The notes: generated from the sequence alone by a model not told the origin. Counted from the first letter of the stretch, positions 915 through 33,544 are shown. The stretch is DNA of 64,000 bases from an uncultured Bacteriovoracaceae bacterium (GCA_964600235.1 CAZRIV010000010.1:72909-136908); one strand, 5' to 3'. Translations and numbers: made by a program.

Positions 915-3065
915 TCACTCCATGTGAGTGACAAGGCGTCTCCCGAGCGGCATGGGCGTGATGCCCGGCACCGTGGAGATATCCCTGTCATGGAAGGTCC
1001 CTGTTGGTGATACGTATCTCAGGATGCCCTTGTGCAGATCAACGGACGGACCGAAGGCCCTGCCCGTGAACATGGCTTCAGTACCGGTTTGATCGCCGGT
1101 CAAGGCGTCGTATTCCTCAAGCCTGGACAATCCGGTATCGATCCCGCTGCAGGGGGCCTCTTCGCTCCAGGTGCTCAGGATGACCTTGCCGTTGATAACC
1201 GTTATCCCGGCAGGCGGTCCGTAATCGAGAGAGGCGGCCCAGACAGGACGTTCTGGTGTGTGGTTCTCAAGCATCGTGGTGCTTGCGGCAATGAAAAAAA
1301 GCTCCTTGTTCAGTCTGTAGGGGCGTATCTCGATGATGGCATCTTTGGCGAGTGTGGTTATCATGCCGGCGGGATCAAGGCTCGAGGAGAAGAGGAATAT
1401 CCTGCCGTCGGATGTGCCCGCAAAGACACGGGCGGTGCATGGGTCATAGCGGATCACGGTGATGGTATGGCCTGTGTCGAACTGGGCCAGCATGCCGCCG
1501 CCCTCAATGGAATAGGCATGGACGGATGACCCGCTGCCGGCATACACCACGGACTCGGAGGCGTCATAGCAATCGCCTTTCTGCTGCCAGAGGACCTTGG
1601 GCGATCTGTCCATGCAGGTTATGAATCCTGATGTATTCGGGCCTGCCATGATTCTGCCACCCCTCAGGTTCACCTCTCCCCCAACGCCGATCATGAGCCA
1701 GGTCAGAGCCCCTGTGGACAAGGTGATTTCCAGCAGCCGGTCGCGTGACGTGGTGCAATACAACCTGGTTTCATCTGCTGCGGAGCTCCGGGCGAGGCCC
1801 ACGACGGCAAGTACCGGTAAGGATACCAGGCCTGCAGGATCCGTGACACTCTGCCTGTAAACAGTACATTTGTCGGTCTTGAGCCAGGGCGGATCCAGGC
1901 GCGCCCTGAGGTTTTTCAATACCAGCGCAGAATCGTCGAAGAAGACCGGAGGGCCGGTAACGAGGGCTTGTTCAGGGGCGAAGACCTCCCGGTCAGGCAG
2001 GATCTTTCCCCCTCCCTTTGCGGCCACGGCCTTCAGGAAGTCCGTGGCCGGGCCCATTACATGCACACTGATGCCCAATGACCTGGCATAGGAAGATACG
2101 TCATCGAGGCAGTGTGAACCTTCTTTTTCAAAGAAGGTGTCTTTCGTGTTCCCGTCATGGTCGAAGTCCCTGAGCCACGAGGGGAGGTGCCCGTCATTGA
2201 CCGGGATTCCGGCCGTGACGAGGATGATGTGTTTACTTGAGACGCAGTGGGGGGGGAAAAGTGATGTGGCCTGATAAAGGACCTCCGACAAGGGGCATGT
2301 GCTCGACCTCGGATATAAGCCGTCAAGGCACTGAACGATCTCCCGCCGGTCCATGGTGAAAGGGAGGATAGTTCCCGATGAGGTGCTCATCAGGCTCACC
2401 TCGCACAGGTCGAGTGACTCGACGAGTTCCTGCATGGACGAGAAGTGTTTGGCCCACATGGACATGGACCCGGTAAGGAGCTCGAGGTCCGGGGCACTCT
2501 GATGCGCGTTGCCCCAGCTTCCCCTGAAATAGGTGCATCCGGAAAGAGTACAGGCATCATTGATTTCACAGGCATCCGACAGGCGGGTAATGCTGCCGGA
2601 GGACCACCTTGCATAGAGGGCGTCCTTGTCGAAGTCGCAGCCCGATGATGCCTCCATGGTCATGGAATCATCTATGATGACGACGAGATGCGGCCTTTGT
2701 GCCGTACGGGCAAGGTGTGAGATGGTATCGGGGCACTGCTCCCTCATGGCCACACGCCAGGAATACGACTGCATCGCGCCGGTGGACTCCATGGTGATGC
2801 GAGTGGAAAAACTGATATGGTCCCATCCTTCGGGTGCACCGAACATGGTGCTGCCTGATGGGGGCATGGGCCCATCTGAAGGGCTGAACAGCTGATTCTT
2901 GATGATACGGTAGAATGCATTGCTTGATTTCATATGGTACAGGGTTATGGATGCGGAAGCCATGGTAAGCCCCAGTACGACCGCAAGGATCATCAGCATG
3001 AAGACGAGGATGAACCCCTGTTCACTGGATTTGGTAGGATAATGAAAGCTCTTTTTGGGTTCCAT
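915..3065 (-). CDS. PilY1-like type IV pilus tip adhesin/assembly protein (N-terminal vWA domain, C-terminal propeller-like region)
   Basis: 716 aa. vWA MIDAS-like motif HLVVIIDDSMTMEAS (DxSxS). Hydrophobic N-terminal segment. Sits between two prepilin-type genes as pilY1 does in pilVWXY1E-type clusters. GAGGT lies ~10 nt upstream of ATG at 3065. C-terminal fold assignment is inference. Confidence 0.5.
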   Translation of the reverse strand: MEPKKSFHYPTKSSEQGFILVFMLMILAVVLGLTMASASITLYHMKSSNAFYRIIKNQLFSPSDGPMPPSGSTMFGAPEGWDHISFSTRITMESTGAMQSYSWRVAMREQCPDTISHLARTAQRPHLVVIIDDSMTMEASSGCDFDKDALYARWSSGSITRLSDACEINDACTLSGCTYFRGSWGNAHQSAPDLELLTGSMSMWAKHFSSMQELVESLDLCEVSLMSTSSGTILPFTMDRREIVQCLDGLYPRSSTCPLSEVLYQATSLFPPHCVSSKHIILVTAGIPVNDGHLPSWLRDFDHDGNTKDTFFEKEGSHCLDDVSSYARSLGISVHVMGPATDFLKAVAAKGGGKILPDREVFAPEQALVTGPPVFFDDSALVLKNLRARLDPPWLKTDKCTVYRQSVTDPAGLVSLPVLAVVGLARSSAADETRLYCTTSRDRLLEITLSTGALTWLMIGVGGEVNLRGGRIMAGPNTSGFITCMDRSPKVLWQQKGDCYDASESVVYAGSGSSVHAYSIEGGGMLAQFDTGHTITVIRYDPCTARVFAGTSDGRIFLFSSSLDPAGMITTLAKDAIIEIRPYRLNKELFFIAASTTMLENHTPERPVWAASLDYGPPAGITVINGKVILSTWSEEAPCSGIDTGLSRLEEYDALTGDQTGTEAMFTGRAFGPSVDLHKGILRYVSPTGTFHDRDISTVPGITPMPLGRRLVTHME

Positions 3066-3708
3066 GGTAGCTGGACCTCATGTCAATGATCAGGTCTGGG
3101 CCTGAAATCCGGGGGTTGAAATAAACCACTGCCTCGGCCAGCAGCTCGTTGTTGCGATAGAGGCCGTCTTTCTTCAGTTCGTAACAGACGGCCGGGACCG
3201 CCCGGGCACCTTGGGGCGGCATTTTCCAACATGTCATGGGCACCCTTGTGTATCCCCGCGAATAGGAATGACTTATCCGGCAGGGCCCGCAATCGGTCAG
3301 TATGCCGAGACCTGCCCAGAAGTCTGCATGGCCGTCATTGTCTATGTCGATGGTATCGAGTACCGCATCAGATGAAGATGATGAATCGACGAGCGCGTAA
3401 TAAGGTGCCGGATCGGTGGAAGACAGCCTTATGCCGGGATTTTCCGAGGTGACGGGCACGCCTGCGATAAAGAGCCGACCTTCTTCTGTGGCGACCTTCA
3501 GGTCCTGGGGCAGCAGGAATGCGCATTGGGACATATCGGTGTTCAACCGGATGGATGCCTGCCTGAGTGACTGCATGCAGTACCAATCCTGCCTTATCTC
3601 CGCGTGGGTAACCGCTGCCACCCGGTGGAACTGATAGAGCGTAAGGAAAAGGATCGATGAACACGCAAGGGCTATGAGCAACTCCACCAGGCTCACCCCC
3701 TTTTCCAT
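3022..3708 (-). CDS. PilW/PilX-like minor pilin (prepilin-type N-terminal methylation domain)
   Basis: MEKG/VSLVELLIALACSSILF is a class III signal (G-V-S-L-V-E). GGAGGG lies 6 nt upstream of ATG at 3708; the longer ORF from TTG 3726 has no SD. 3' end overlaps the PilY1-like start by 44 nt. Confidence 0.55.
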   Translation of the reverse strand: MEKGVSLVELLIALACSSILFLTLYQFHRVAAVTHAEIRQDWYCMQSLRQASIRLNTDMSQCAFLLPQDLKVATEEGRLFIAGVPVTSENPGIRLSSTDPAPYYALVDSSSSSDAVLDTIDIDNDGHADFWAGLGILTDCGPCRISHSYSRGYTRVPMTCWKMPPQGARAVPAVCYELKKDGLYRNNELLAEAVVYFNPRISGPDLIIDMRSSYHGTQKELSLSYQIQ

Positions 3709-4139
3709 GCTGCTCCCTCCTTTCAAGACAAAAACCCCCTGGGAAAGGAAGGAAAAGTAGGTAGAAAACGTTAATTAAACAGGAGGATATACCATAGCAA
3801 CAATGAATATCGTGAGCTCATGGGCCTGGAAGGGGGTTGCCGCAGCAGAAAAAGCACTTATTCAGAAGGATGCTGCGCTTCAGACCTCCTCAATACCATT
3901 GCAACACAGTGTTAGAGTCATATTAAATACCATGAAGCGGGTGCTTGTCAAGCAGCATTCACCGGCAGGCCGACCGGCAAGGCACAGCAGAGAAGGCATA
4001 TCAGTTTTTTCATCATAAACCTCCTTTGATCAAAAGTATTTATCTAGTATAGAAATTATCTTGAATTCGAGCAGGAACTCCATGGAAAATGGCGATGGAC
4101 AACGCTGAGAGATATTGATAATAATCGCACCAAAACAAG

Positions 4140-5792
4140 ATGGAGCGCATGCAGAGCAGGGGTAATATCCTTATTACGGTCATCGTGGTGGTCGCCATAG
4201 CCATGACCCTGTTCCTGATCGTACCCCTCGGGGGCAGGGTCGGGCAGCTCAGGGAAGCCACCATCTCATTCATCTTCAGGAAAACTCCCCAGTTCATTTC
4301 TCTTGAAGTCGAGGTGGATGGTGTGCGCAAGCTGATAAGGGCCGGCGATTCGGTGAAGATCAAGGGCGGAGAATCCTTCATTATCACCAGGGTCATGGCG
4401 AATACATTTTTCAATTCATATCTGGGTGTCGATGTCGTGGGCTTCGGCAAGCCCAATGACCTGAACGAGCCCATTGACACGGGTGAGATCCGCAACCAGC
4501 TCATAGCAGCCGGCATCAAATCGGTGCCTATAGATGTCTTCTACCTCGACCGCAAGATAGCCAAGGTCCCGCTGGAACTGGATCTGTCCCAGCAGGACTT
4601 CATGGATCAGATCAAGTCGGCCAAGAGCGACGAGGAAAGGATATCATTGCTGCGCTCCGGCCATGCAACCTTTCCGGGCAACAGCTTTTTCCTGGAGGAA
4701 CTCGAAAAACTCCTGGGTGCCAAGGAAGACTACCAGTCCCTGGTGGGGATCTACAAGAAGATCGTGGAGGCCGACCCTGCGAATGTGAAGGCATACTCCA
4801 GCCTGTCCCAGTTTTATATCAAACTGAAGAACTACGACGAGGCGCTCGCCATGTGCGCCAAGATCGTGGATGCAGGGAAGGCGGATGCGGTAATCTACCG
4901 GCGCATGGCTTATATCTCGGGTGAAAAGGGTGATTTCGAGAACAGGGTTGTATACCTGAGAAAGGCATTGGAGTTTGATAAAAGAAACGAGGCGGTGGTC
5001 GTCGACCTTGCCAAGACCTACGAACAGGCAGGAATGGACAAGCAGGCCCTGGATGTATACCAGTCCGCGTCCGATACCGCCAGGGACCGCGATATACTCA
5101 TCCCGCTGATCCAGAATGCCGTGAAGAAGGAAGATTACAAAAAGGCCGGCGACCTTCTGAAGCGCTATATCCAGCGCTACCCCCAGGATAAAAACGCACT
5201 GGCACAGCTTGGAATGGTCATGGGTAAACAGGGGGATACCAGGGCCCAGGAGGCATACTACCAGAGGGCAGCCGAGCTTTCGGGTAATGACAGCGTGCTC
5301 TGGTATAATCTGGGAGTCGCCCGCGAGAAACTGGGCGACGCCAAGGGCGCGTCTGATGCCTATGCAAAGGGCCTCCAGGCAAAGCCGGGCGATGTGGATC
5401 TGCTGCAGGGCGCTGCAGCCCTGTCATTGAAGCAGGGACGGTATAACGATGCATACACATATTACGCATCACTGTCGAAAAAGAGCCCCAGGAAGGAACA
5501 TCTCAAGGGGCTTGTCAGCGCATCCGTCGGGTTGAAGGATCAGGATAAGGTCATTGATGCATGCACACAGTTTCTGAAGAGCCACAAGGACCACGACGTA
5601 GCCATTGCACTCGGTTATGCCTACGAGGCTCGATCTGCGGGGCGCGACAGCCGGACCAGGCTGGATGACCTGAATAAGGCCCTGGAGGCATATCAGACCG
5701 CCAGGAAGATTAATCCAGCTTCCAAGGTTGCGGCCGGCAAGATCCCGGAACTCAAGATTGAAATCCTGAAGCTCAGGAAGGCCCGGCAGTAA
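4140..5792 (+). CDS. TPR-repeat protein with N-terminal transmembrane anchor
   Basis: 550 aa. N-terminal hydrophobic helix ILITVIVVVAIAMTLFLIV, followed by multiple 34-aa TPR-like repeats (motifs such as AxxYxxLGxxYxxxGxxxxA). Divergent from the pilin cluster. Confidence 0.6.
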   Translation: MERMQSRGNILITVIVVVAIAMTLFLIVPLGGRVGQLREATISFIFRKTPQFISLEVEVDGVRKLIRAGDSVKIKGGESFIITRVMANTFFNSYLGVDVVGFGKPNDLNEPIDTGEIRNQLIAAGIKSVPIDVFYLDRKIAKVPLELDLSQQDFMDQIKSAKSDEERISLLRSGHATFPGNSFFLEELEKLLGAKEDYQSLVGIYKKIVEADPANVKAYSSLSQFYIKLKNYDEALAMCAKIVDAGKADAVIYRRMAYISGEKGDFENRVVYLRKALEFDKRNEAVVVDLAKTYEQAGMDKQALDVYQSASDTARDRDILIPLIQNAVKKEDYKKAGDLLKRYIQRYPQDKNALAQLGMVMGKQGDTRAQEAYYQRAAELSGNDSVLWYNLGVAREKLGDAKGASDAYAKGLQAKPGDVDLLQGAAALSLKQGRYNDAYTYYASLSKKSPRKEHLKGLVSASVGLKDQDKVIDACTQFLKSHKDHDVAIALGYAYEARSAGRDSRTRLDDLNKALEAYQTARKINPASKVAAGKIPELKIEILKLRKARQ

Positions 5793-26362: not shown

Positions 26363-26806
26363 ATGGATCCAGTAAAAGTTGTCGTACGTCTCATCGACGG
26401 AAGAGTGATCAAGGGCTATTCCCAGAACTTCAATCCAAACCGGCCCTCGTTCCATATGAATGAGGAAGACGGAGGGAAGCCTCTCCATAATTCCATCCTC
26501 CTGGAGATGAAAGAAATCAAGGCGGTCTTCTTTGTGAAGACGTTTGAAGGTGACAGGGAATATGACGAAAGAAAAGATTTCATTCAGGGCGATCGCCTTC
26601 AGGGCCGGAAGGTCGAGGTGATTTTCGTTGATGATGAAGTCATCAGAGGTTCTACGGTCGGGTATGATCCTCAGCGACCCGGATTCTTTTTGATACCCGT
26701 AGATCCCCGGAGTAACAACATCAGGATCTTTGTAGTATCGAGAGCATTAAAGGACATTCGGTTCCTTGCGGAAGAGCAGAAGACCGCGCAGTACCGGTAC
26801 GGATGA
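26363..26806 (+). CDS. Hypothetical protein with internal tandem duplication
   Basis: 147 aa. Two related ~45-aa modules: VVVRLIDGRVIKGYSQNFNPNRPSFHM and VEVIFVDDEVIRGSTVGYDPQRPGFFLIPVD. GGAGG SD. Confidence 0.5.
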   Translation: MDPVKVVVRLIDGRVIKGYSQNFNPNRPSFHMNEEDGGKPLHNSILLEMKEIKAVFFVKTFEGDREYDERKDFIQGDRLQGRKVEVIFVDDEVIRGSTVGYDPQRPGFFLIPVDPRSNNIRIFVVSRALKDIRFLAEEQKTAQYRYG

Positions 26807-26861: not shown

Positions 26862-27632
26862 CTACTTTAATTCCTTCAGTCTGCCCACCGCCTTTGTCCC
26901 GAAGACCCCGCCCGGATCGAGTTCTATCACCCTGGTGAGTTCTTCTTTCGCTTTTCCGGCAGCCCCCATCTGAAGGTAGAGCTGCGCCAGGTCCCAGCGG
27001 GCCTCTATATATCCGGGGTATTCCAGGACGGCATGCTTGAGCGAATCGATGGCTTCGTTCAGTTTGCCTTGTGCGACATATATCTTGGAATTCAGGTGCC
27101 ATGCCGGTGCATAATGGGAGTTGCGTTCAAGGATCATCTGGGTGGTCTCATAGGCCAACTGGAGGTTTTTCTTTTCCAGGTACATGGAAGCGAGGTTATA
27201 CCTGGCATATTCCGGTGTCTGATAGAGTTCGTCCGTCAGTGCCCTTTTGAAGTTTGTTATGGCATCGTCATATTTCCCCTGGCTTGCATAGATGGATCCT
27301 TTCAGATTGTAGGCCTCCGCCTTGAGGCCAGGATGATCCAGCTCCAGCTTATCTCCCAACTCAATGGCCCTGTCTGCATTTTCCAGGGCCTGGTCGTATT
27401 TTTCCTGCTTCCAGTAGGCAAAGGCAAATCCGTAATAGACCTCGGGGTCATTCGGGCTGACGTTTCTGGCCTTGCGAAGCTCTATGAGCGCACTCTGGAT
27501 TTCGTTTTCCTGGATCTTGCTCATGGCGAGCGCCACCAGGGGTTTTGAAAGAGTGCGCTGTTCCTTGAACTGGCCTGCACAGCCAACGGCAAGCAGGAGA
27601 ATCAGTATGCCGAAGATAAATTTTTTCATCAT
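26862..27632 (-). CDS. TPR-repeat lipoprotein, possibly PilF/Tgl-like
   Basis: Signal peptide with lipobox LLAVGC, then ~6 TPR repeats. Size (~255 aa) and rlmN neighbourhood are reminiscent of pilF. Confidence 0.65.
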   Translation of the reverse strand: MMKKFIFGILILLLAVGCAGQFKEQRTLSKPLVALAMSKIQENEIQSALIELRKARNVSPNDPEVYYGFAFAYWKQEKYDQALENADRAIELGDKLELDHPGLKAEAYNLKGSIYASQGKYDDAITNFKRALTDELYQTPEYARYNLASMYLEKKNLQLAYETTQMILERNSHYAPAWHLNSKIYVAQGKLNEAIDSLKHAVLEYPGYIEARWDLAQLYLQMGAAGKAKEELTRVIELDPGGVFGTKAVGRLKELK

Positions 27633-27704
27633 GGATTTCATCCCTTAACGAATCTGTATTTTTCTGCTTGTCGCATGCAACGGGTTATCATCGCTTTACC
27701 GCCT

Positions 27705-28334
27705 TCATCTCAGAGTCTTGCCGATGACATACCATCCATCCTCGGAATCTGATTCCGTATCCAGGAGAAGGTGTATGATGGTCAGACCCGGGAAAGCCCT
27801 TTTCAGGTCATCCAGGTCCACGGTCTCGAACTTCTTCTTGTTGCTCAAATAGGCCTCAGGTGTCAGGGCATTGGACTCATAAGCATCTTTTGCCCTGCGG
27901 GATATCTTGTCCAGCGAATACTTCTGCGAGCATGATGTCTGCTGGATGAGCAGGGGCCTTCCATGTTTGGCAGCGACCTCTGCAGCCCTCCTGCGCAGGG
28001 CCTGTGTGATGAACGTGGCGTCAAGGATCACGCCCTTACCTCTTGATGCCAGTTCATCCGCCCTGGCAAACATGGTATCATAGACGAGCTTGCGCTTGTC
28101 CATGTTCGATGCGATCTTCTCGTCGAAGATGTCTTCGTCCTTGAGGACCTCTTTACGGATAGTGTCGGTCCTGAGCATGGGATAGCCCTTGATGCGCGCG
28201 ATGAGCTCCGTTGTCTCGGTCTTGTTCGTGGCGGGCAGACCGCAGGCTATGATCACCATACCCTCGGTTATCTCCCGGTCAATGAATGCCTTTAAGGGCT
28301 CTCGCACCGTATATACCTCTTCATCCCATTGCAC
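27705..28334 (-). CDS. P-loop kinase-like protein (AAA_33 / zeta-toxin / polynucleotide-kinase-like fold) with atypical Walker A
   Basis: VIIACGLPATNKTETTE in the Walker A position (GxxxxNKT instead of GxxxxGKT). VILDATF Walker B-like segment. 209 aa. Confidence 0.5.
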   Translation of the reverse strand: MQWDEEVYTVREPLKAFIDREITEGMVIIACGLPATNKTETTELIARIKGYPMLRTDTIRKEVLKDEDIFDEKIASNMDKRKLVYDTMFARADELASRGKGVILDATFITQALRRRAAEVAAKHGRPLLIQQTSCSQKYSLDKISRRAKDAYESNALTPEAYLSNKKKFETVDLDDLKRAFPGLTIIHLLLDTESDSEDGWYVIGKTLR

Positions 28335-28377
28335 GCAAAGTCTTTAGCGCCACCTCATGAGGCCTCTCTGTGCACCC

Positions 28378-29250
28378 TTATATGCCAAACTGGCCGGCAA
28401 CACAATCAGGTACGTGCACATTGCCCATGATCACGGGCTGCTGGTGACAGTCGGACCCGCCCGTGGCGATGAGGCCTTCAGAGCGGACAATGCCCATATA
28501 GAATGCCGAGGCATGCTTGTCGTGCCTGGTGTGCCAGCACTCGATGCCGTCGATAAGACCGAGCATCACGGATCCGATCATCTCCTTCTGCTCCTCGAGG
28601 GACCTTGTCAGGACGGCCAGAGAGGTCCCGTTGGGATCGTTGGGATGGGCAAGCACCAGTCTGCCCCCGGCAGAGCGGATCAGGGTTGAGGCCTCTTCGA
28701 GGCCCAGCGGCATCTTGGGCACATTGCATCTCGTCAGATACCTGTCAAAGGCCTCCTGCCTGGTGCTGACGATCCCCTTGGCAATGAGGTGGTTCGCGAT
28801 GTGGGGCCTGCCGAAGGACCCGTCCACGCTTGCCTCTATGGCATCCATGTCTTCTCCGGTGAGTTCCGCGATGCCTTGCCTGTTGAATTCCTCATTGATG
28901 TTCTTCAGGATCATCCCGGCCCTGATCCTGCGGTAGGAACTGAGCTCCTGGAGCTTCTCCTTAAGTGCCCTGTTCGAGATGTCGTAGCCGTACCCTAAAA
29001 AGTCCAGCGACGCGTCCTTGCCCTTGGTATAGCGCGGGTGGCTGATGGTCACATTCAGCTCCACGCCGGTCAGGTACCGTATCCCATTTGTTTCGGCGAG
29101 TGCCATTGCCTCTTTCTGGGCCTTCACCGAGTCGTGGTCCGTGATGGACAACAGCGATATCCGGCGCCGTTTGGCCTCGGGAAAGATCTGCTCCAGGGTC
29201 CACTTCCCGTCAGATCCGTTCCTGGAATGGATGTGAAGGTCAATCTTCAT
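28378..29250 (-). CDS. PHP-domain metal-dependent phosphoesterase (TrpH/YciV, RNase AM-like)
   Basis: MKIDLHIHS...SDG...LSITDHDS N-terminal PHP motifs. C-terminal AHP...GGSDCH. 290 aa. Confidence 0.75.
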   Translation of the reverse strand: MKIDLHIHSRNGSDGKWTLEQIFPEAKRRRISLLSITDHDSVKAQKEAMALAETNGIRYLTGVELNVTISHPRYTKGKDASLDFLGYGYDISNRALKEKLQELSSYRRIRAGMILKNINEEFNRQGIAELTGEDMDAIEASVDGSFGRPHIANHLIAKGIVSTRQEAFDRYLTRCNVPKMPLGLEEASTLIRSAGGRLVLAHPNDPNGTSLAVLTRSLEEQKEMIGSVMLGLIDGIECWHTRHDKHASAFYMGIVRSEGLIATGGSDCHQQPVIMGNVHVPDCVAGQFGI

Positions 29251-30253
29251 GATTTACATAGCTTCTGGCAAGGTCATAGTACTTCTTTGCCGTTTCAAAG
29301 GCGGCTTCCTTGGACTTGCCGTTCAATCCCGCATCGTCGAGCATGAACGAGGTCACCTTGGCCCGCACATAGGCACGGTAGACCTTGTAAAAGGTAAGAA
29401 CCTGGAGCATCCCTTTATCGCCTGATTCCTGAATATAAGCCTGAACAAATGCATGCGCAAGCTCCGGGTGCCCATTATAGTCCAGGTCCATGGCCAGGAA
29501 GGCCACATCTGAGGCCACATCACCGTACCGGAACCGCTCGTTGAACTCGATGCAGTCGAAGACATAGATATCTCCCCCATGCATACAGATGTGCTCAAGA
29601 TGCAGGTCCCCATGGCACTCTCTGATGTGGCCCTGCGCGACCCTGCCTTCGAAGACCTTCGTGTTGTTCCTGAGGAAGTCCAGGCTCCAGGTCTTTATGG
29701 TTTGAAAGTCCTTTCCTGATACGGGTCCTCCCCGGTAGCGTTCGGTCTGCTCGAAGTTCTCGATGATATTGTGGAAGATGACTTCAACGCTGCCGAAGGC
29801 CTCTGATTTTTCAGTGCCGGGAATGCTTCCATAGACCTTTGCCAGGTGCCTGCCCACGCGTTGGAGTTCGTCGACACCCGCCCTGCCCCGGGCCAGGAGC
29901 CGGTAGAGCATGTGGTCTTCGCTGATGCGGCGCATCTTGAGTGCGTACTCCATGATGTTCGATACATCCCCGATGGCAAAGGTGTTGCCTGCCTGTGAGA
30001 TAGGTACGGCGGCGAGGTACACATCCGGGGAGAACCTTCTGTTCAGCCGCAGCTCTTCTTCGATGAAGAACTTCCGCCTTGGCAGGGTGGTGAAGTCGAG
30101 GAAATCGAAACGAAGGGGTTTTTTCACCTTGTACACAAAGGCATCGCCGATAAAGACCCAGGAGATGTGCGTCTGGATCAGGGATATGCCTGTGGGTTTT
30201 TCCGGGTATGATTCCGGGTCGAGCATGAATTCAATGAGGGTCATCTTTGTCAC
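29240..30253 (-). CDS. Protein-kinase-like / aminoglycoside-phosphotransferase (APH) family protein
   Basis: Brenner-type catalytic motif HGDLHLEHI and DFG-equivalent DCIEF. 337 aa. Start abuts the rlmN stop. Confidence 0.6.
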   Translation of the reverse strand: MTKMTLIEFMLDPESYPEKPTGISLIQTHISWVFIGDAFVYKVKKPLRFDFLDFTTLPRRKFFIEEELRLNRRFSPDVYLAAVPISQAGNTFAIGDVSNIMEYALKMRRISEDHMLYRLLARGRAGVDELQRVGRHLAKVYGSIPGTEKSEAFGSVEVIFHNIIENFEQTERYRGGPVSGKDFQTIKTWSLDFLRNNTKVFEGRVAQGHIRECHGDLHLEHICMHGGDIYVFDCIEFNERFRYGDVASDVAFLAMDLDYNGHPELAHAFVQAYIQESGDKGMLQVLTFYKVYRAYVRAKVTSFMLDDAGLNGKSKEAAFETAKKYYDLARSYVNHED

Positions 30254-31345
30254 TCACGCCTTACCGCCCGCGAGCTGCCCGCAGGCAGCCAGGATATCCT
30301 TGCCCTTTTCCTTGCGGAGCATGACGACATAGGGGCTGTCCTTGAGCCTCTCTTCAAAGGCCAGCACGCTCTTTGTCTCCGGGGCCTCCAGGCCGCAGCC
30401 CGGCCAGGGATTGAAGGGAATGAGGTTCACCTTGGCCCTGAGTCCGTGCAGCAGCCTGATGAGTTTTTTTGCATCCTCGACACTGTCGTTAACGCCCTTG
30501 ATGAGCACGTATTCTATGGTGATGCGCCTGCGATTCGGGAGCTCGTATTCCTTCAATGCCCGTATGAGCTTCTCGATGGGGTACTTCTTGTTGATGGGCA
30601 TGATGGAAGAGCGCGTCCTGTCGTCCACCGCGTTGAGCGATACGGCGAGTCCGGCGTCCGTGTCCCTCGCCAGATCCTTAAGGGCGGGCACGATGCCGCA
30701 GGTGGATATGGTCAGGCGCCGTTTCGATATCCGGGGCCCCTCAGGGTCGGTGATGACGGCGGCCGCCTTGATCACGTTGTCGTAGTTGAGCAGGGGCTCG
30801 CCCATGCCCATGAAGACCACGTTCCTGATCTGCCTGTCCGGGTAGGCCTGAATCGGGTAGAGGATCTGGGAGACGATCTCGCCCAGGCTCAGGTGCCGGG
30901 TAAAGCCCAGGGTGGCGGTGAAGCAGAAGCGGCAGCCCATGGCGCAGCCCACCTGGGAAGAGACGCAGACGCTCCAGTGGTCTTTTTCCGGGATGAGTAC
31001 GCTCTCGATGATCAGGCCGTCGCCGAGCCGATAGGCAAGCTTTTCCGTGCCGTCTTCGGACACCTGAGAGCCCGCGACCTCGGGATATGAGATGTAGGCA
31101 AACTCCGAGATCTCCCGGCGCAGGTCCTTGGGAAGGTTGGTCATCCTGGAGATGTCGCGCACGCCTTTGCCGAATACCCAGGTGAAGATCTGGGAGCCGC
31201 GGTAGGGCTTGTCCGGGAAGAGGCGCTCCAGGTCCTCCCGGGTGCAGTCAAGCAGGTTGAGCCTGGAAGGGGCGCCTGGCGCCCCGCCTGTTTCGATATC
31301 CTCTGGTGAGATGTCCTTGCGTGCAGGCATCCTTATGGTCCCCAT
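30254..31345 (-). CDS. rlmN: 23S rRNA / tRNA (adenine-C2)-methyltransferase RlmN (radical SAM)
   Basis: Radical SAM cluster motif CAMGCRFCFT, conserved MGMGEPL and C-terminal ACGQLAG. Start ATG 31345 has AGGGGG ~10 nt upstream. Confidence 0.85.
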   Translation of the reverse strand: MGTIRMPARKDISPEDIETGGAPGAPSRLNLLDCTREDLERLFPDKPYRGSQIFTWVFGKGVRDISRMTNLPKDLRREISEFAYISYPEVAGSQVSEDGTEKLAYRLGDGLIIESVLIPEKDHWSVCVSSQVGCAMGCRFCFTATLGFTRHLSLGEIVSQILYPIQAYPDRQIRNVVFMGMGEPLLNYDNVIKAAAVITDPEGPRISKRRLTISTCGIVPALKDLARDTDAGLAVSLNAVDDRTRSSIMPINKKYPIEKLIRALKEYELPNRRRITIEYVLIKGVNDSVEDAKKLIRLLHGLRAKVNLIPFNPWPGCGLEAPETKSVLAFEERLKDSPYVVMLRKEKGKDILAACGQLAGGKA

Positions 31346-31416
31346 GGGCTTCAGTCCCCCTGTCTCCAACGGATGTACCGTTCTTTCATGCATTGATAAA
31401 CGGGAGGGGTAAAGCC

Positions 31417-31493
31417 TGGCGCGCCCGACAGGGATCGAACCTGTGACCTTAGGCTCCGGAGGCCTACGCTCTATCCTACTGAGCTACGGGCGC
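31417..31493 (-). tRNA. tRNA-Arg (anticodon CCG)
   Basis: Minus-strand sequence GCGCCCG-TA-GCTC-AGTAGGATA-GAGC-G-TAGGC-CTCCGGA-GCCTA-AGGTC-ACAGG-TTCGATC-CCTGT-CGGGCGC-G-CCA folds as a cloverleaf with 7-bp acceptor stem, GTTCGATCC T-arm, anticodon loop CT-CCG-GA and encoded CCA. Confidence 0.9.
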
Positions 31494-31501
31494 GCATCGT
31501 T

Positions 31502-32692
31502 TCAGTTCTTGCTCATCAAACTTTCAATGGCCATCTCGAGACCCTTCAACGTGATCTCGAACATGGGGAATATCTCCTGGACCGCCTGGATGGTCTGTGT
31601 GTGCGACCAGGTATATTCATACTTGGGATTGAGCCATACACTATGTTTGAACGTCCTGGCAAGGAATTCAAGCTTTTTAATGCTGGGGTCCGATTTCGTG
31701 TTGTAATAAATGCTCCCGTTGCGGCTGAAGAGCTCGTAGGGCGCCATGGATGCGTCGCCCACGATGATCAGCCTGGTATCGGGGTCCATGCGCGTGAATT
31801 CTTCCACCACGTAGGGCTTGTCATAGCGCTGGGGGTCTTTCCACACCCGGGTGTATATGGTGTTGTGGAAAAAGAAGATCTGCAGGTCCTTGAACTGGCT
31901 CTTGGCGTGGTTGAAGAGCACCTGCACCACGTTGATGTAGGGGTCCATGGAGAAACCGCCGTTGTCGATCATGAGCATGACCTTGAGCTTGTCCTTCAAG
32001 GACCGGTCGAACACGATCTCGATCTCGCCGGCGTTTCGCATGGTCTCGTAGATGGTCTTCTCGATGTTCAGGTGGTCCTTGGGGCCTGCGGGCTTCATGT
32101 GGCGCAGCCGCTTCAATGCATCAGAGATCTGGGCCGTCCCGAGCCTTGTGTCTGCGGTGTAGTCCTTGTAGCGTCTTTCCAGTGCCACCTTTACGGCCGA
32201 TTTGTTGCGTGAGGCCCCGCCCACGCGCATGCCGCCCGGGTGATAGCCCGAATGGCCCACCGGGGACGTGCCGCCCGTTCCGATCCACCGGTTGCCCCCG
32301 TCGTGTCGCTCCGTCTGGTCTGCAAGCCGCTTCCTGAAATATTCCTCCAGCTCTTCAGGGGTGAGTTTGCTGAGCGTCTCCTCGTCCACGCCTAAAAACT
32401 CGGCCATGGTCTGGGGGTCCTTGAGCCACTCCTCCAGCAGGGCCTTGATGGCCAGGTCTATCTCTGCATAGGCATCCGCGCCCAGCTCGGCGCCCTGGAA
32501 GAAATGGGCGAACACCCGGTCATAGGTGTCGAAATGTCGCTCGGTCTTGATGAGCACGGCCCTGCTCACCGAGTAGAGGTCGTCCAGGGAGGTGATGCAC
32601 CCTTTTTGCAGGGCCTCCTGGAGCCGTAAAAAGCTCGACGGAGAGATGGGGACCCCCTTGTCCCTCAAGAGATAGAAGAACTCCGTAAACAC
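31502..32692 (-). CDS. VWA-domain protein of the CoxE/VWA-containing family (partner of MoxR ATPase)
   Basis: C-terminal VWA domain with MIDAS-like segment VMLMIDNGGFSMD. 396 aa. Immediately downstream of the MoxR-like ATPase. Confidence 0.7.
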   Translation of the reverse strand: MFTEFFYLLRDKGVPISPSSFLRLQEALQKGCITSLDDLYSVSRAVLIKTERHFDTYDRVFAHFFQGAELGADAYAEIDLAIKALLEEWLKDPQTMAEFLGVDEETLSKLTPEELEEYFRKRLADQTERHDGGNRWIGTGGTSPVGHSGYHPGGMRVGGASRNKSAVKVALERRYKDYTADTRLGTAQISDALKRLRHMKPAGPKDHLNIEKTIYETMRNAGEIEIVFDRSLKDKLKVMLMIDNGGFSMDPYINVVQVLFNHAKSQFKDLQIFFFHNTIYTRVWKDPQRYDKPYVVEEFTRMDPDTRLIIVGDASMAPYELFSRNGSIYYNTKSDPSIKKLEFLARTFKHSVWLNPKYEYTWSHTQTIQAVQEIFPMFEITLKGLEMAIESLMSKN

Positions 32693-32707: not shown

Positions 32708-33544
32708 TCAATAGGACCCGGTTACCTGCCGCTGCACGATCTTGAAATCCTCGCTCTTCTTGAACAGCACGCCGAGGTACGGGATGTCGCCCCTGGAGAG
32801 GTGCCTGGGGTCGAACCCCTTGTCCATGATGAGTATCCTGATCCAGTTGATGAGCTCCCGCGTTGCCGGCTTCTTCTCGATGCCGCGCACATTGCGCAAC
32901 TTATAGAACGCCTCGATGCAGGCTTCCGAGAGCTTCTTGTCGAGGTCCGGGAAGTGCGCGCGGACGATCTGGTTCATCATCTCGGTGTCCGGGAAGGCGA
33001 TGTGGTGGAACACGCACCTGCCCAGGAACGGGTCGGAGAGGTCCTTCTTGGCATTACTGGTAATGATGATGATGGGCCTGTTCCGGGCCCGCACAGTCTT
33101 GTCTATCTCCATGATGTCAAAGGACATCTGGTCGAGCACGTCTAAAAGGTCGTCCTGGAAGTCGGTATCCGCCTTGTCGATCTCGTCGATGAGGAGCACG
33201 ACTTTTGTATCCGATGCAAATGCCTGCCCGATCTTGCCCATCTTTATGTAGTGCTCGATATTGCTCACGTCGCGCTTGGAGTCCGCAAAACGGCTGTCGT
33301 TCAGCCGGGTCAGGGTGTCATACTGGTACAGGGCCTCAATGGCCTTCATGCTGGACTTGACGTTCAGGATGATCAGCGGCATTTTCAGGTCTTCTGCAAT
33401 GGCATGGGCAAGCAGGGTCTTGCCCGTGCCGGGCTCGCCCTTGATGAGCAGGGGCATCTCCAGCTTGATGCTGGCGTTCACTATCTTAGACAGCTCAGGG
33501 TCGAGAACATAATTTTTTCCGCCGGAAAATTCGGTGTCCTGCAT
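32708..33544 (-). CDS. MoxR-like AAA+ ATPase (CoxD-like)
   Basis: Walker A GEPGTGKT, Walker B LLIDEIDKA, sensor region. 278 aa. Confidence 0.8.
   Translation of the reverse strand: MQDTEFSGGKNYVLDPELSKIVNASIKLEMPLLIKGEPGTGKTLLAHAIAEDLKMPLIILNVKSSMKAIEALYQYDTLTRLNDSRFADSKRDVSNIEHYIKMGKIGQAFASDTKVVLLIDEIDKADTDFQDDLLDVLDQMSFDIMEIDKTVRARNRPIIIITSNAKKDLSDPFLGRCVFHHIAFPDTEMMNQIVRAHFPDLDKKLSEACIEAFYKLRNVRGIEKKPATRELINWIRILIMDKGFDPRHLSRGDIPYLGVLFKKSEDFKIVQRQVTGSY

Follow-up and report, generated by a model that had tools for sequence, protein, structure and literature searches.

The subject of this work is a cassette of three genes, encoding a kinase of the APH fold, a phosphoesterase of the PHP type and a P-loop kinase (referred to here as PLKa), which lies at positions 27,705 to 30,253 on the minus strand of a 64,000 nucleotide (nt) stretch of DNA from an uncultured Bacteriovoracaceae bacterium (GCA_964600235.1 CAZRIV010000010.1:72909-136908). 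This whole stretch will be called the window, and the best matches of its proteins are to Desulfomonilia metagenome-assembled genomes. An initial annotation, based upon the sequence of the window, had described a run of genes in the order rlmN > APH-like > PHP > P-loop kinase > TPR with abutting or overlapping ends. The coordinates of the open reading frame (ORF) calls confirm this description, and the domain identities that had been assigned to the cassette genes were upheld by profile searches with the Pfam and NCBIfam models. When read along the minus strand, the order of the features in this region is MoxR > VWA > tRNA-Arg > rlmN > APH-fold > PHP > PLKa > TPR lipoprotein, with the coordinates and matches listed below (lengths in amino acids, aa).

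32708-33544, minus strand: MoxR-type AAA ATPase (weak MadB/MadC-like and CoxE-like matches in the MoxR-VWA pair)
31502-32692, minus strand: VWA protein, the second member of the MoxR-VWA pair, to which the same weak matches apply
31417-31493, minus strand: tRNA-Arg(CCG) (Rfam tRNA model, 69.6 bits, and ARAGORN)
30254-31393, minus strand: rlmN (TIGR00048, 376.5 bits against a cutoff of 290)
29240-30253, minus strand: APH-fold kinase, 337 aa (Pfam APH, 34.2 bits)
28378-29250, minus strand: PHP phosphoesterase of the TrpH/COG0613 type, 290 aa (Pfam PHP, 39.5 bits)
27705-28307, minus strand: P-loop kinase PLKa, 200 aa, in an ORF that opens at 28334 (Pfam AAA_33, 63.3 bits)
26862-27641, minus strand: TPR lipoprotein, PilW/Tgl-like, the final gene of the run (many TPR Pfam matches)

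The start of the APH-like gene directly abuts the rlmN stop, the APH-like and PHP genes overlap by 11 nt (29240-29250), and the remaining intergenic gaps downstream of PHP in this run are 43 and 63 nt. Because of this gene spacing, the co-transcription of rlmN with the cassette is likely in the window organism. The intervals between the genes of the run contain no terminator-like hairpin on the minus strand, and a search of Rfam for riboswitches and other RNA elements yielded only the tRNA.

The Pfam APH match of the APH-fold protein (gathering threshold 23.2 bits) covers only its C-terminal half. The catalytic loop of this protein, H214-G215-D216-L-H-x-x-H221 (HGDLHLEH), is invariant and carries a His in place of the usual Asn of HGDxxxxN; D233 of the FDCIEFN motif and the N-lobe residues K42, K44 and E67 are also invariant, and the protein therefore looks like an active kinase of the small-molecule type. 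Its AlphaFold2 model has a mean predicted local distance difference test (pLDDT) score of 91.8, and the nearest folds are those of choline/ethanolamine kinase, APH(3′) and the capreomycin phosphotransferases (template modelling score, TM, of about 0.5). No relative of this protein was recovered from the PDB, either by sequence or by profile. An identity as the aminoglycoside resistance enzyme APH(3′) was considered and rejected, the NCBIfam model APH_3p giving 17.9 bits against its equivalog cutoff of 205.

Over its full length the APH-fold protein is 41–47% identical to the N-terminal domains of fused COG2187 proteins of about 520–540 aa, and we regard it, from these alignments, as a split form of the COG2187 N-terminal domain. 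To place it among its relatives, a genomic census was made by scanning with an alignment of the APH-fold protein, one genome being taken per species; this gave 80 loci, or 81 with the window, from the Desulfobacterota, Chloroflexota, Thermoplasmatota, Actinomycetota, Nitrospinota and other groups. At 48 of these loci a single protein joins the APH-fold domain to a P-loop domain at its C-terminus (COG2187, the Rv2004c family), and at 24 others, including the window, a separate APH-fold gene of about 335 aa adjoins a PLKa gene of about 200 aa, in agreement with the earlier proposal that an APH-fold and an AAA_33 domain which are fused elsewhere are split here. When the loci of a metagenome scan (see below) are also considered, the APH-fold protein and a P-loop kinase occur together in nearly every one of the 81 genomic and 80 metagenomic loci, usually as one fused protein and otherwise as neighbouring genes. 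A neighbour-joining tree of the APH-fold proteins was too star-like to bear upon the monophyly of the split forms.

The second kinase, PLKa, exceeds the Pfam AAA_33 gathering threshold of 27 bits and also matches 6PF2K weakly (21.9 bits). The initial annotation had described it as a protein of 209 aa; the locus and the family hold, and the start codon requires revision. Nearly all of its homologues are 200 aa long and begin with MREP..., which matches a GTG codon at 28307, and a Shine-Dalgarno-like sequence, GAAGAGG, lies 8 nt 5′ of this codon. Because of these two features, translation most likely starts at GTG 28307 and gives a product of 200 aa. Among the best 120 matches the sequence identity is 70–95%, and it is 56–62% between bacteria and Thermoplasmatota. 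PLKa is only 25–30% identical to the P-loop domain of the fused COG2187 proteins and is far more conserved than the latter. A profile search of 1.84 billion representative sequences yielded 34 PLKa clusters at E ≤ 1e-30, none of them longer than 254 aa and none fused; the best-scoring longer proteins that followed them were the C-terminal domains of COG2187 fusions.

The Walker A motif of PLKa in the window is GLPATNKT (residues 32–39; 28213-28236, minus strand), and the pattern GLP[GA][ST][W/N/Y/K]K[ST] was present in all 48 of the dereplicated PLKa sequences that were inspected (from 98 full-length sequences). The Lys and the Thr/Ser are kept in this pattern, but the Gly before the Lys is never present and it departs from the canonical GxxxxGK[ST], whereas the fused COG2187 domain has a canonical motif, GxxGxGKS. 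The beginning of the PLKa motif, GLPA, resembles that of 6PF2K. Besides the Walker Lys/Thr and the Walker B Asp, the residues D57-x-x-R60, D105 and R114/R116 are invariant. We take D57 and R60 to be the equivalents of the catalytic base Asp35 and of the 3′-phosphate-binding Arg38 of the T4 polynucleotide kinase (PNK). In T4-type polynucleotide kinases the Asp-x-x-Arg motif touches both the 5′-OH and the 3′-phosphate, and the minimal acceptor is a nucleoside 3′-phosphate. The AlphaFold2 model of PLKa (pLDDT 88.4) has the PFKFB kinase domain as its top Foldseek match (E 1e-7, TM 0.55–0.60), and the kinase domains of mammalian PNKP and Clostridium Pnkp, PSTK and PezT come next. Sequence and profile searches of the PDB with PLKa gave only insignificant adenylate-kinase matches. 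A PNK-like 5′-kinase role for PLKa, acting upon mononucleotides or very short fragments, is plausible.

For the PHP protein, the best NCBIfam model is NF041577 (nside_bi_sphtase), with 114 bits against an equivalog cutoff of 400, followed by NF047791 (RNaseRnm) with 99.2 bits against a cutoff of 375. Its relatives in the PDB, viz. 3e0f (Bifidobacterium), 9etk, 2yb1 (Cv1693) and 7ug9 (Escherichia coli RNase AM), score 54–74 bits. TrpH/YciV is identical with RNase AM, the enzyme responsible for 5′-end maturation of rRNAs (PMC7261194), and the roles of its residues as metal ligands, as the 5′-phosphate pocket (Arg107, Arg110 and Arg141) and as a stacking residue (Phe161) have been described (PMC9410882). 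The residues H6, H8, D14, H39, E64, H202, D267 and H269 of the window PHP align with His13, His15, Asp20, His45, Glu72, His198, Asp255 and His257 of RNase AM, and R107, R110, R148 and F168, which are conserved across the PHP subfamily, correspond to Arg107, Arg110, Arg141 and Phe161. Two positions differ, viz. residue 83, an Asp (in 'LDFLG') at the place of the metal ligand His83 of RNase AM, and Asp205, which occupies the position of Arg201, as in 3e0f. Because the protein falls far below both equivalog cutoffs, we assign it by sequence to a separate TrpH subfamily, the predicted substrate of which carries a 5′-phosphate. It is most likely a nucleoside 3′,5′-bisphosphate (pNp) 3′-phosphatase, which would convert pNp into a nucleoside 5′-monophosphate (5′-NMP).

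The evidence that bears most directly upon the function of the cassette comes from the genes that accompany PLKa in other organisms. In the genomic census, 15 of the 24 PLKa loci have an adjacent phosphatase gene, which is PHP in nine cases and HAL2 in six, and at one further locus HAL2 is 4.5 kb away. In contrast, the 51 loci whose P-loop domain is of the fused or intermediate type all lack both PHP and HAL2 within about 7 kb. The restriction of the phosphatase to PLKa-type loci has a Fisher p of about 6e-10, a value computed over loci that are not phylogenetically independent. The HAL2 partner, which has the Pfam Inositol_P domain and occupies the same position as PHP, scores 332 bits against the NCBIfam equivalog cutoff of 267 for 3′(2′),5′-bisphosphate nucleotidase. 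A metagenome scan that was seeded with the HAL2-type PLKa provided 80 more loci. Where at least about 1.1 kb of upstream sequence was available, the arrangement HAL2 > PLKa > APH recurs in these loci, with the exceptions of L151, L153 and L155; the order PLKa > PHP was seen in 14 metagenome loci, and in the 10 of these with enough contig the APH gene lies convergently beside PHP. Among all 102 PLKa loci, 53 have HAL2, 23 have PHP and 26 have neither (18 of the latter 26 with too little flank to tell); for loci with informative flanks the corresponding numbers are 26, 13 and eight.

Five arrangements of the trio were observed (APH > PHP > PLKa, APH > PLKa > PHP, PHP > APH > PLKa, PLKa > PHP >< APH and HAL2 > PLKa > APH), PHP being present in four of them. 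In a reciprocal look-up of exact sequences, five PHP homologues (60–63% identical to the window PHP) and two PLKa homologues were all located in the triad. Because members of the same families adjoin each other in many unrelated contigs and in several gene orders, we judge their adjacency to be far beyond chance, and the survey of gene neighbourhoods thus bears out the proposal that the three genes form a conserved module. To our knowledge, no exonuclease activity has been reported for the HAL2 family. Three non-homologous classes of phosphatases acting upon adenosine 3′,5′-bisphosphate (pAp) are known, and CysQ/HAL2 and the Cv1693-type PHP proteins represent two of them (PMC8268124). As both of these classes are found beside the same kinase subfamily, the exchange of PHP for HAL2 represents a non-orthologous displacement, and the shared role that it points to is most likely the hydrolysis of the 3′(2′)-phosphate of a nucleoside bisphosphate rather than the trimming of rRNA 5′ ends.

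The association with rlmN is of a different nature. The rlmN gene was found within 5 kb upstream in seven of the 81 genomic loci, all from the Desulfobacterota (Desulfomonilia/Syntrophales). Three of these are of the split type (the window, L001 and L005) and four, from the Syntrophales, are of the fused type (L050, L051, L065 and L072), with two CoA-transferase genes inserted in three of the latter four. In L091 and L092 rlmN is nearby but convergent, on the opposite strand, and the Chloroflexota and Thermoplasmatota loci, like those of the Geobacter and HAL2 types, were without it. The TPR lipoprotein gene is also found 3′ of fused COG2187 genes (L026 and L059), and the arrangement of rlmN, COG2187 or the trio, and TPR looks like an old synteny block of one phylum. 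Because the linkage is confined to one lineage and is absent or convergent elsewhere, we do not take rlmN as evidence for a shared function.

Based upon these observations, our preferred reading, which we put forward tentatively as quite possible, is that the cassette is a three-enzyme nucleotide-phosphate module, and not one that processes rRNA or tRNA, in which the kinases make a nucleoside 3′,5′-bisphosphate and PHP yields a 5′-NMP from it. The substrates, the order of the steps and the hydroxyl phosphorylated by each kinase are inferred. The APH-fold kinase and PLKa, which are one polypeptide in most relatives, would act in one pathway, and the pair would produce pNp. By the simplest route, PLKa would act in a PNK-like manner and phosphorylate the 5′-OH of a nucleoside 3′-phosphate or of a very short 3′-phosphorylated fragment, and the APH-fold enzyme would supply or pre-phosphorylate the acceptor; that it might itself make the 3′-phosphate is possible by analogy with the chemistry of APH(3′). 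PHP would then bind the 5′-phosphate in its Arg pocket, hydrolyse the 3′-phosphate and release the 5′-NMP. The net effect would be the salvage or detoxification of 3′-phosphorylated nucleotides. A more far-reaching proposal, which we consider rather doubtful, is that the cassette encodes an undescribed salvage route from 3′-phosphorylated nucleotides or nucleosides to 5′-NMP via nucleoside 3′,5′-bisphosphate. The inputs of such a route would be the products of metal-independent RNases and of the hydrolysis of 2′,3′-cyclic phosphates, and its enzymes would comprise two kinase families without a characterised member, one of them with an unprecedented Walker A variant, and an interchangeable PHP/HAL2 3′-phosphatase.

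A number of observations weigh against the preferred reading of a pNp-forming and pNp-hydrolysing module. Its weakest step is the role proposed for the APH-fold kinase, and the sole reported data on the fused family are those on Rv2004c, which mildly phosphorylates streptomycin (PMC8701281). For PLKa, the use of ATP itself is not certain because its Walker A motif is without the canonical Gly before the Lys. The acceptor of PLKa would not be fixed by TM-scores of 0.5–0.6, and the matches to PNKP and Clostridium Pnkp (E 1e-6 to 1e-5, TM 0.5–0.57) are no better than that to 6PF2K. TrpH-type enzymes are also 5′-phosphate-dependent exonucleases, and the two activities cannot be separated by sequence alone. 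In the tree of PLKa sequences, a PHP-associated clade, which includes the window, is distinguished from a HAL2-associated clade; because the choice of HAL2 or PHP tracks these two deep clades, the displacement represents one or a few ancient events rather than many independent ones. The eight well-flanked PLKa loci that have no phosphatase nearby must also be accounted for. Lastly, a sixth PHP homologue that was looked up, P0253, lies outside the triad. In the closest syntenic relative of the window (L174; ENA ERZ25039513 contig_7, 2419-5183), with identities of 90% for MoxR, 88% for VWA, 80% for RlmN, 75% for PHP and 75% for TPR, the gene order is rlmN > PHP > TPR with gaps of 8 and 30 nt, and neither the APH-fold gene nor PLKa gave a match by tblastn at E ≤ 1. 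PHP can therefore persist alone and the kinases are not strictly needed by it, which fits a housekeeping role for PHP as a pAp phosphatase or nanoRNase; given this locus, a local relationship between PHP and rlmN is also conceivable.

Four other explanations were weighed against the preferred one. The initial annotation had proposed a module for the processing or repair of RNA 5′ ends that is tied to rlmN, in which PLKa would phosphorylate 5′-OH RNA and PHP would be an RNase AM-like exonuclease, the latter being functionally coupled to RlmN and its rRNA/tRNA substrates. TrpH/YciV does act in rRNA 5′ maturation (PMC7261194), the 5′-phosphate pocket is retained in PHP, and PNKP, Clostridium Pnkp and PSTK are among the fold neighbours of PLKa; in addition, rlmN abuts the cassette with a tRNA gene before it, adjoins fused COG2187 genes in some Syntrophales (L050) and stays together with PHP in L174. 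However, a large sister clade has HAL2 instead of PHP, rlmN is missing from most loci and is convergent in L091, no ligase, Hen1, RtcB or other RNA-repair gene was present in any of the neighbourhoods inspected, and PHP reaches only 99 of the 375 bits of the RNase RNM equivalog cutoff. With rlmN confined to one lineage (7/81), with PHP replaced by HAL2 and with no repair partners, we have not retained this proposal, which we consider distinctly unlikely. The separate possibility that the phosphatase and the kinases share no common pathway, a housekeeping pAp phosphatase or nanoRNase merely lying beside kinases whose substrate is an unconnected small compound (a sugar, an antibiotic or an osmolyte, for example), can draw upon the retention of PHP without kinases in L174, upon the choline/ethanolamine kinases and the aminoglycoside and capreomycin phosphotransferases as the nearest folds of the APH-fold protein, upon the weak phosphorylation of streptomycin by Rv2004c and upon the largely housekeeping character of the more distant synteny. 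We regard it as unlikely, since two non-homologous pAp phosphatases would not come by chance to lie beside one narrow subfamily of kinases, with five gene orders, in bacterial phyla and metagenomes alike, and yet be missing wherever the P-loop is of the sister type (51 loci).

The tight adjacency of kinase and phosphatase in all of the arrangements would also be expected if the pair controlled a regulatory bisphosphate, the kinases making pAp or pNp (e.g., by 3′-phosphorylating AMP) and PHP or HAL2 destroying it, with the effector inhibiting nanoRNases and exoribonucleases. Such a pair would be analogous to PFK-2/FBPase-2 and fructose-2,6-bisphosphate, and the folds that PLKa matches best (E 1e-7) are those of the PFKFB kinase domains, which are naturally fused to an opposing bisphosphatase; the GLPA at the start of its Walker A motif is likewise reminiscent of 6PF2K. 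The known inhibition by pAp of Orn, XRN enzymes, PAPS (3′-phosphoadenosine 5′-phosphosulfate) reductase and sulfotransferases also counts in its favour (PMC8268124). But none of the three proteins contains a sensor or regulatory domain, the need for two kinases is left unexplained, nothing points to a 3′-kinase activity and many loci are without a phosphatase, so that a regulatory function of this kind seems quite unlikely. A P-loop kinase beside a pAp phosphatase also recalls cysC with cysQ, and the cassette could accordingly be part of a pathway resembling those of PAPS or coenzyme A (CoA), in which the kinases make a 3′-phosphorylated adenylyl donor, a transferase uses it and the phosphatase clears the resulting pAp. 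Every major source of pAp known so far is of this group-transfer type (sulfate assimilation and CoA/acyl carrier protein; PMC8268124). Nevertheless, the Pfam-labelled neighbourhoods contain no sulfurylase, sulfotransferase, adenylyltransferase or phosphopantetheinyl transferase, adenosine 5′-phosphosulfate (APS) kinase and dephospho-CoA kinase are outside the top 50 fold matches of PLKa, and no CysC or CoaE match was obtained in NCBIfam, and we view this explanation as very unlikely. An involvement in anti-phage defence was considered separately and rejected, as none of the three proteins had a PADLOC match at E ≤ 0.001.

Some features of the surrounding genes may also be recorded. The tRNA-Arg(CCG) gene, which follows the VWA gene, lies 24 nt 5′ of the start of the rlmN ORF, and the same tRNA is present at the identical position in L005, L081 and L086. 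The RlmN_N domain begins after the first ~40 aa of this ORF and, because the tRNA is so close upstream at a conserved place, the annotated N-terminus of rlmN may be too long. The outer context of the triad in the Desulfomonilia is MoxR-VWA-tRNA-rlmN...TPR, and the MoxR-VWA pair is found 5′ of tRNA-Arg/rlmN in every Desulfomonilia locus seen, and also in L020. The TPR lipoprotein at the other end of the run scores 64.7 bits with PilW and 59.4 bits with Tgl, each below its cutoff, and upon reading of its sequence has a signal peptide and a Cys lipobox. Just past its gene, and convergent with it, a protein of 147 aa is encoded on the plus strand (26363-26806), which matches DUF6982 (105 bits) and, faintly, an LSM-like domain.

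In general, clustering of the immediate neighbours recovered mainly housekeeping synteny (gap-pgk-tpi-secG, bamD, trx and rlmN). In L084 (1796-2935) and L175 (1227-2366) a gene with HD and HD_assoc domains, which is dGTPase-like (triphosphohydrolase), lies 5′ of the trio, with 3 nt between its end and the APH-fold gene, and could be another partner from nucleotide metabolism. In L091, where BamD is encoded 5′ of the trio and the convergent rlmN lies 3′ of it, a predicted lipoprotein of 199 aa without a Pfam match (4219-4818) is inserted between PHP and PLKa; this was seen in one lineage. In the Dehalococcoidia (L016, 9890-14439, and L018, 2467-7023), the trio is arranged as APH > PLKa > PHP, and co-directional genes 3′ of it were identified by eye as those for adenosylhomocysteinase, S-adenosylmethionine (SAM) synthetase and a nucleotidyltransferase. 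MTAP-like and MtaD-like genes lie beside the pair in L062, L039, L035 and L091, NAD kinase is encoded 3′ of PLKa in L039, L055 and L068, and the radical-SAM genes rlmN, miaB and dph2, together with AhcY and MetK, recur near some loci. A theme of salvage of adenosine and SAM by-products is an unproven lead, each of these associations being limited to one lineage and often involving the other strand. The Geobacter-type loci (L024, L037, L040, L041, L054, L063, L073 and L079) have a small membrane protein 3′ of the fused COG2187 gene and, further 3′, a ~1080-aa protein with transporter-like, GAF and PP2C phosphatase regions, a STAS anti-sigma antagonist and an RsbW-like kinase (identified by eye), and this downstream set would be a partner-switching module.

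COG2187 is a widespread family of kinases without a known physiological substrate, and it has a member in the dormancy regulon of Mycobacterium tuberculosis. The tie between PLKa and a phosphatase provides the first concrete and testable clue known to us concerning the chemistry of this family, viz. a ribose 3′,5′-bisphosphate. If the preferred reading is correct, it would mean a new route for recycling 3′-phosphorylated nucleotides, or a means of pAp control, in anaerobic bacteria and archaea; it would also define two new kinase families and provide a role for a distinct TrpH subfamily. A word of caution also follows for annotation, in that not every TrpH-like gene should be annotated as RNase AM.

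No characterised system or description of the trio was found in the literature (for COG2187, Rv2004c, Cv1693, RNase AM and AAA_33 with APH) or in the family libraries, and the earlier statement that no characterised system of this composition is known still stands. However, several known systems share parts of it. The N-terminal domain of COG2187 proteins (e.g., M. tuberculosis Rv2004c of the DosR regulon) is homologous to the window APH-fold protein. The definition of COG2187 specifies one polypeptide with a canonical P-loop, whereas in the window the two kinases are separate genes, the APH-fold protein ending at 337 aa and its divergent P-loop partner, PLKa, having a non-canonical Walker A motif; furthermore, a bisphosphate nucleotidase is tied only to the PLKa form. 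With Cv1693, TrpH and RNase AM the window PHP shares the fold, the ligands of the trinuclear metal site, the insertion domain, the three-Arg pocket and the stacking Phe, but it belongs to a distant subfamily with Asp in place of His83 and of Arg201, and its gene is located between those of two kinases.

In the CysC-CysQ/HAL2 systems a P-loop kinase is likewise encoded with a 3′(2′),5′-bisphosphate nucleotidase, and the partner in the HAL2-associated clade is HAL2-type by NCBIfam; however, no profile identifies PLKa as an APS kinase, and no sulfate-activation genes were seen nearby. PFKFB, the best structural match of PLKa, presumably resembles the cassette in pairing a kinase with a phosphatase for a furanose bisphosphate, but the sequence identity is 15–19%, nothing indicates a sugar-phosphate substrate and the phosphatase partners are unrelated, that of PFKFB being of the histidine-phosphatase type. 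There is also a parallel in chemistry with T4 Pnkp and Pnkp-Hen1, where a P-loop 5′-OH kinase of the PNK/AAA_33 clade is combined with a 3′-phosphatase, a pair of activities that is predicted here. The phosphatases of PNKP proteins have HAD or calcineurin-type folds, whereas that of the window is PHP and HAL2 has the inositol monophosphatase fold; a ligase or Hen1 beside the kinase and phosphatase was absent in all neighbourhoods inspected, an APH-fold kinase is present in addition, and the HAL2-type partners suggest that the substrates would be mononucleotides rather than polynucleotide ends. The parts of the cassette thus belong to known superfamilies, with none of them falling within an equivalog definition, and its logic of a kinase plus a 3′-phosphatase is built from different folds.

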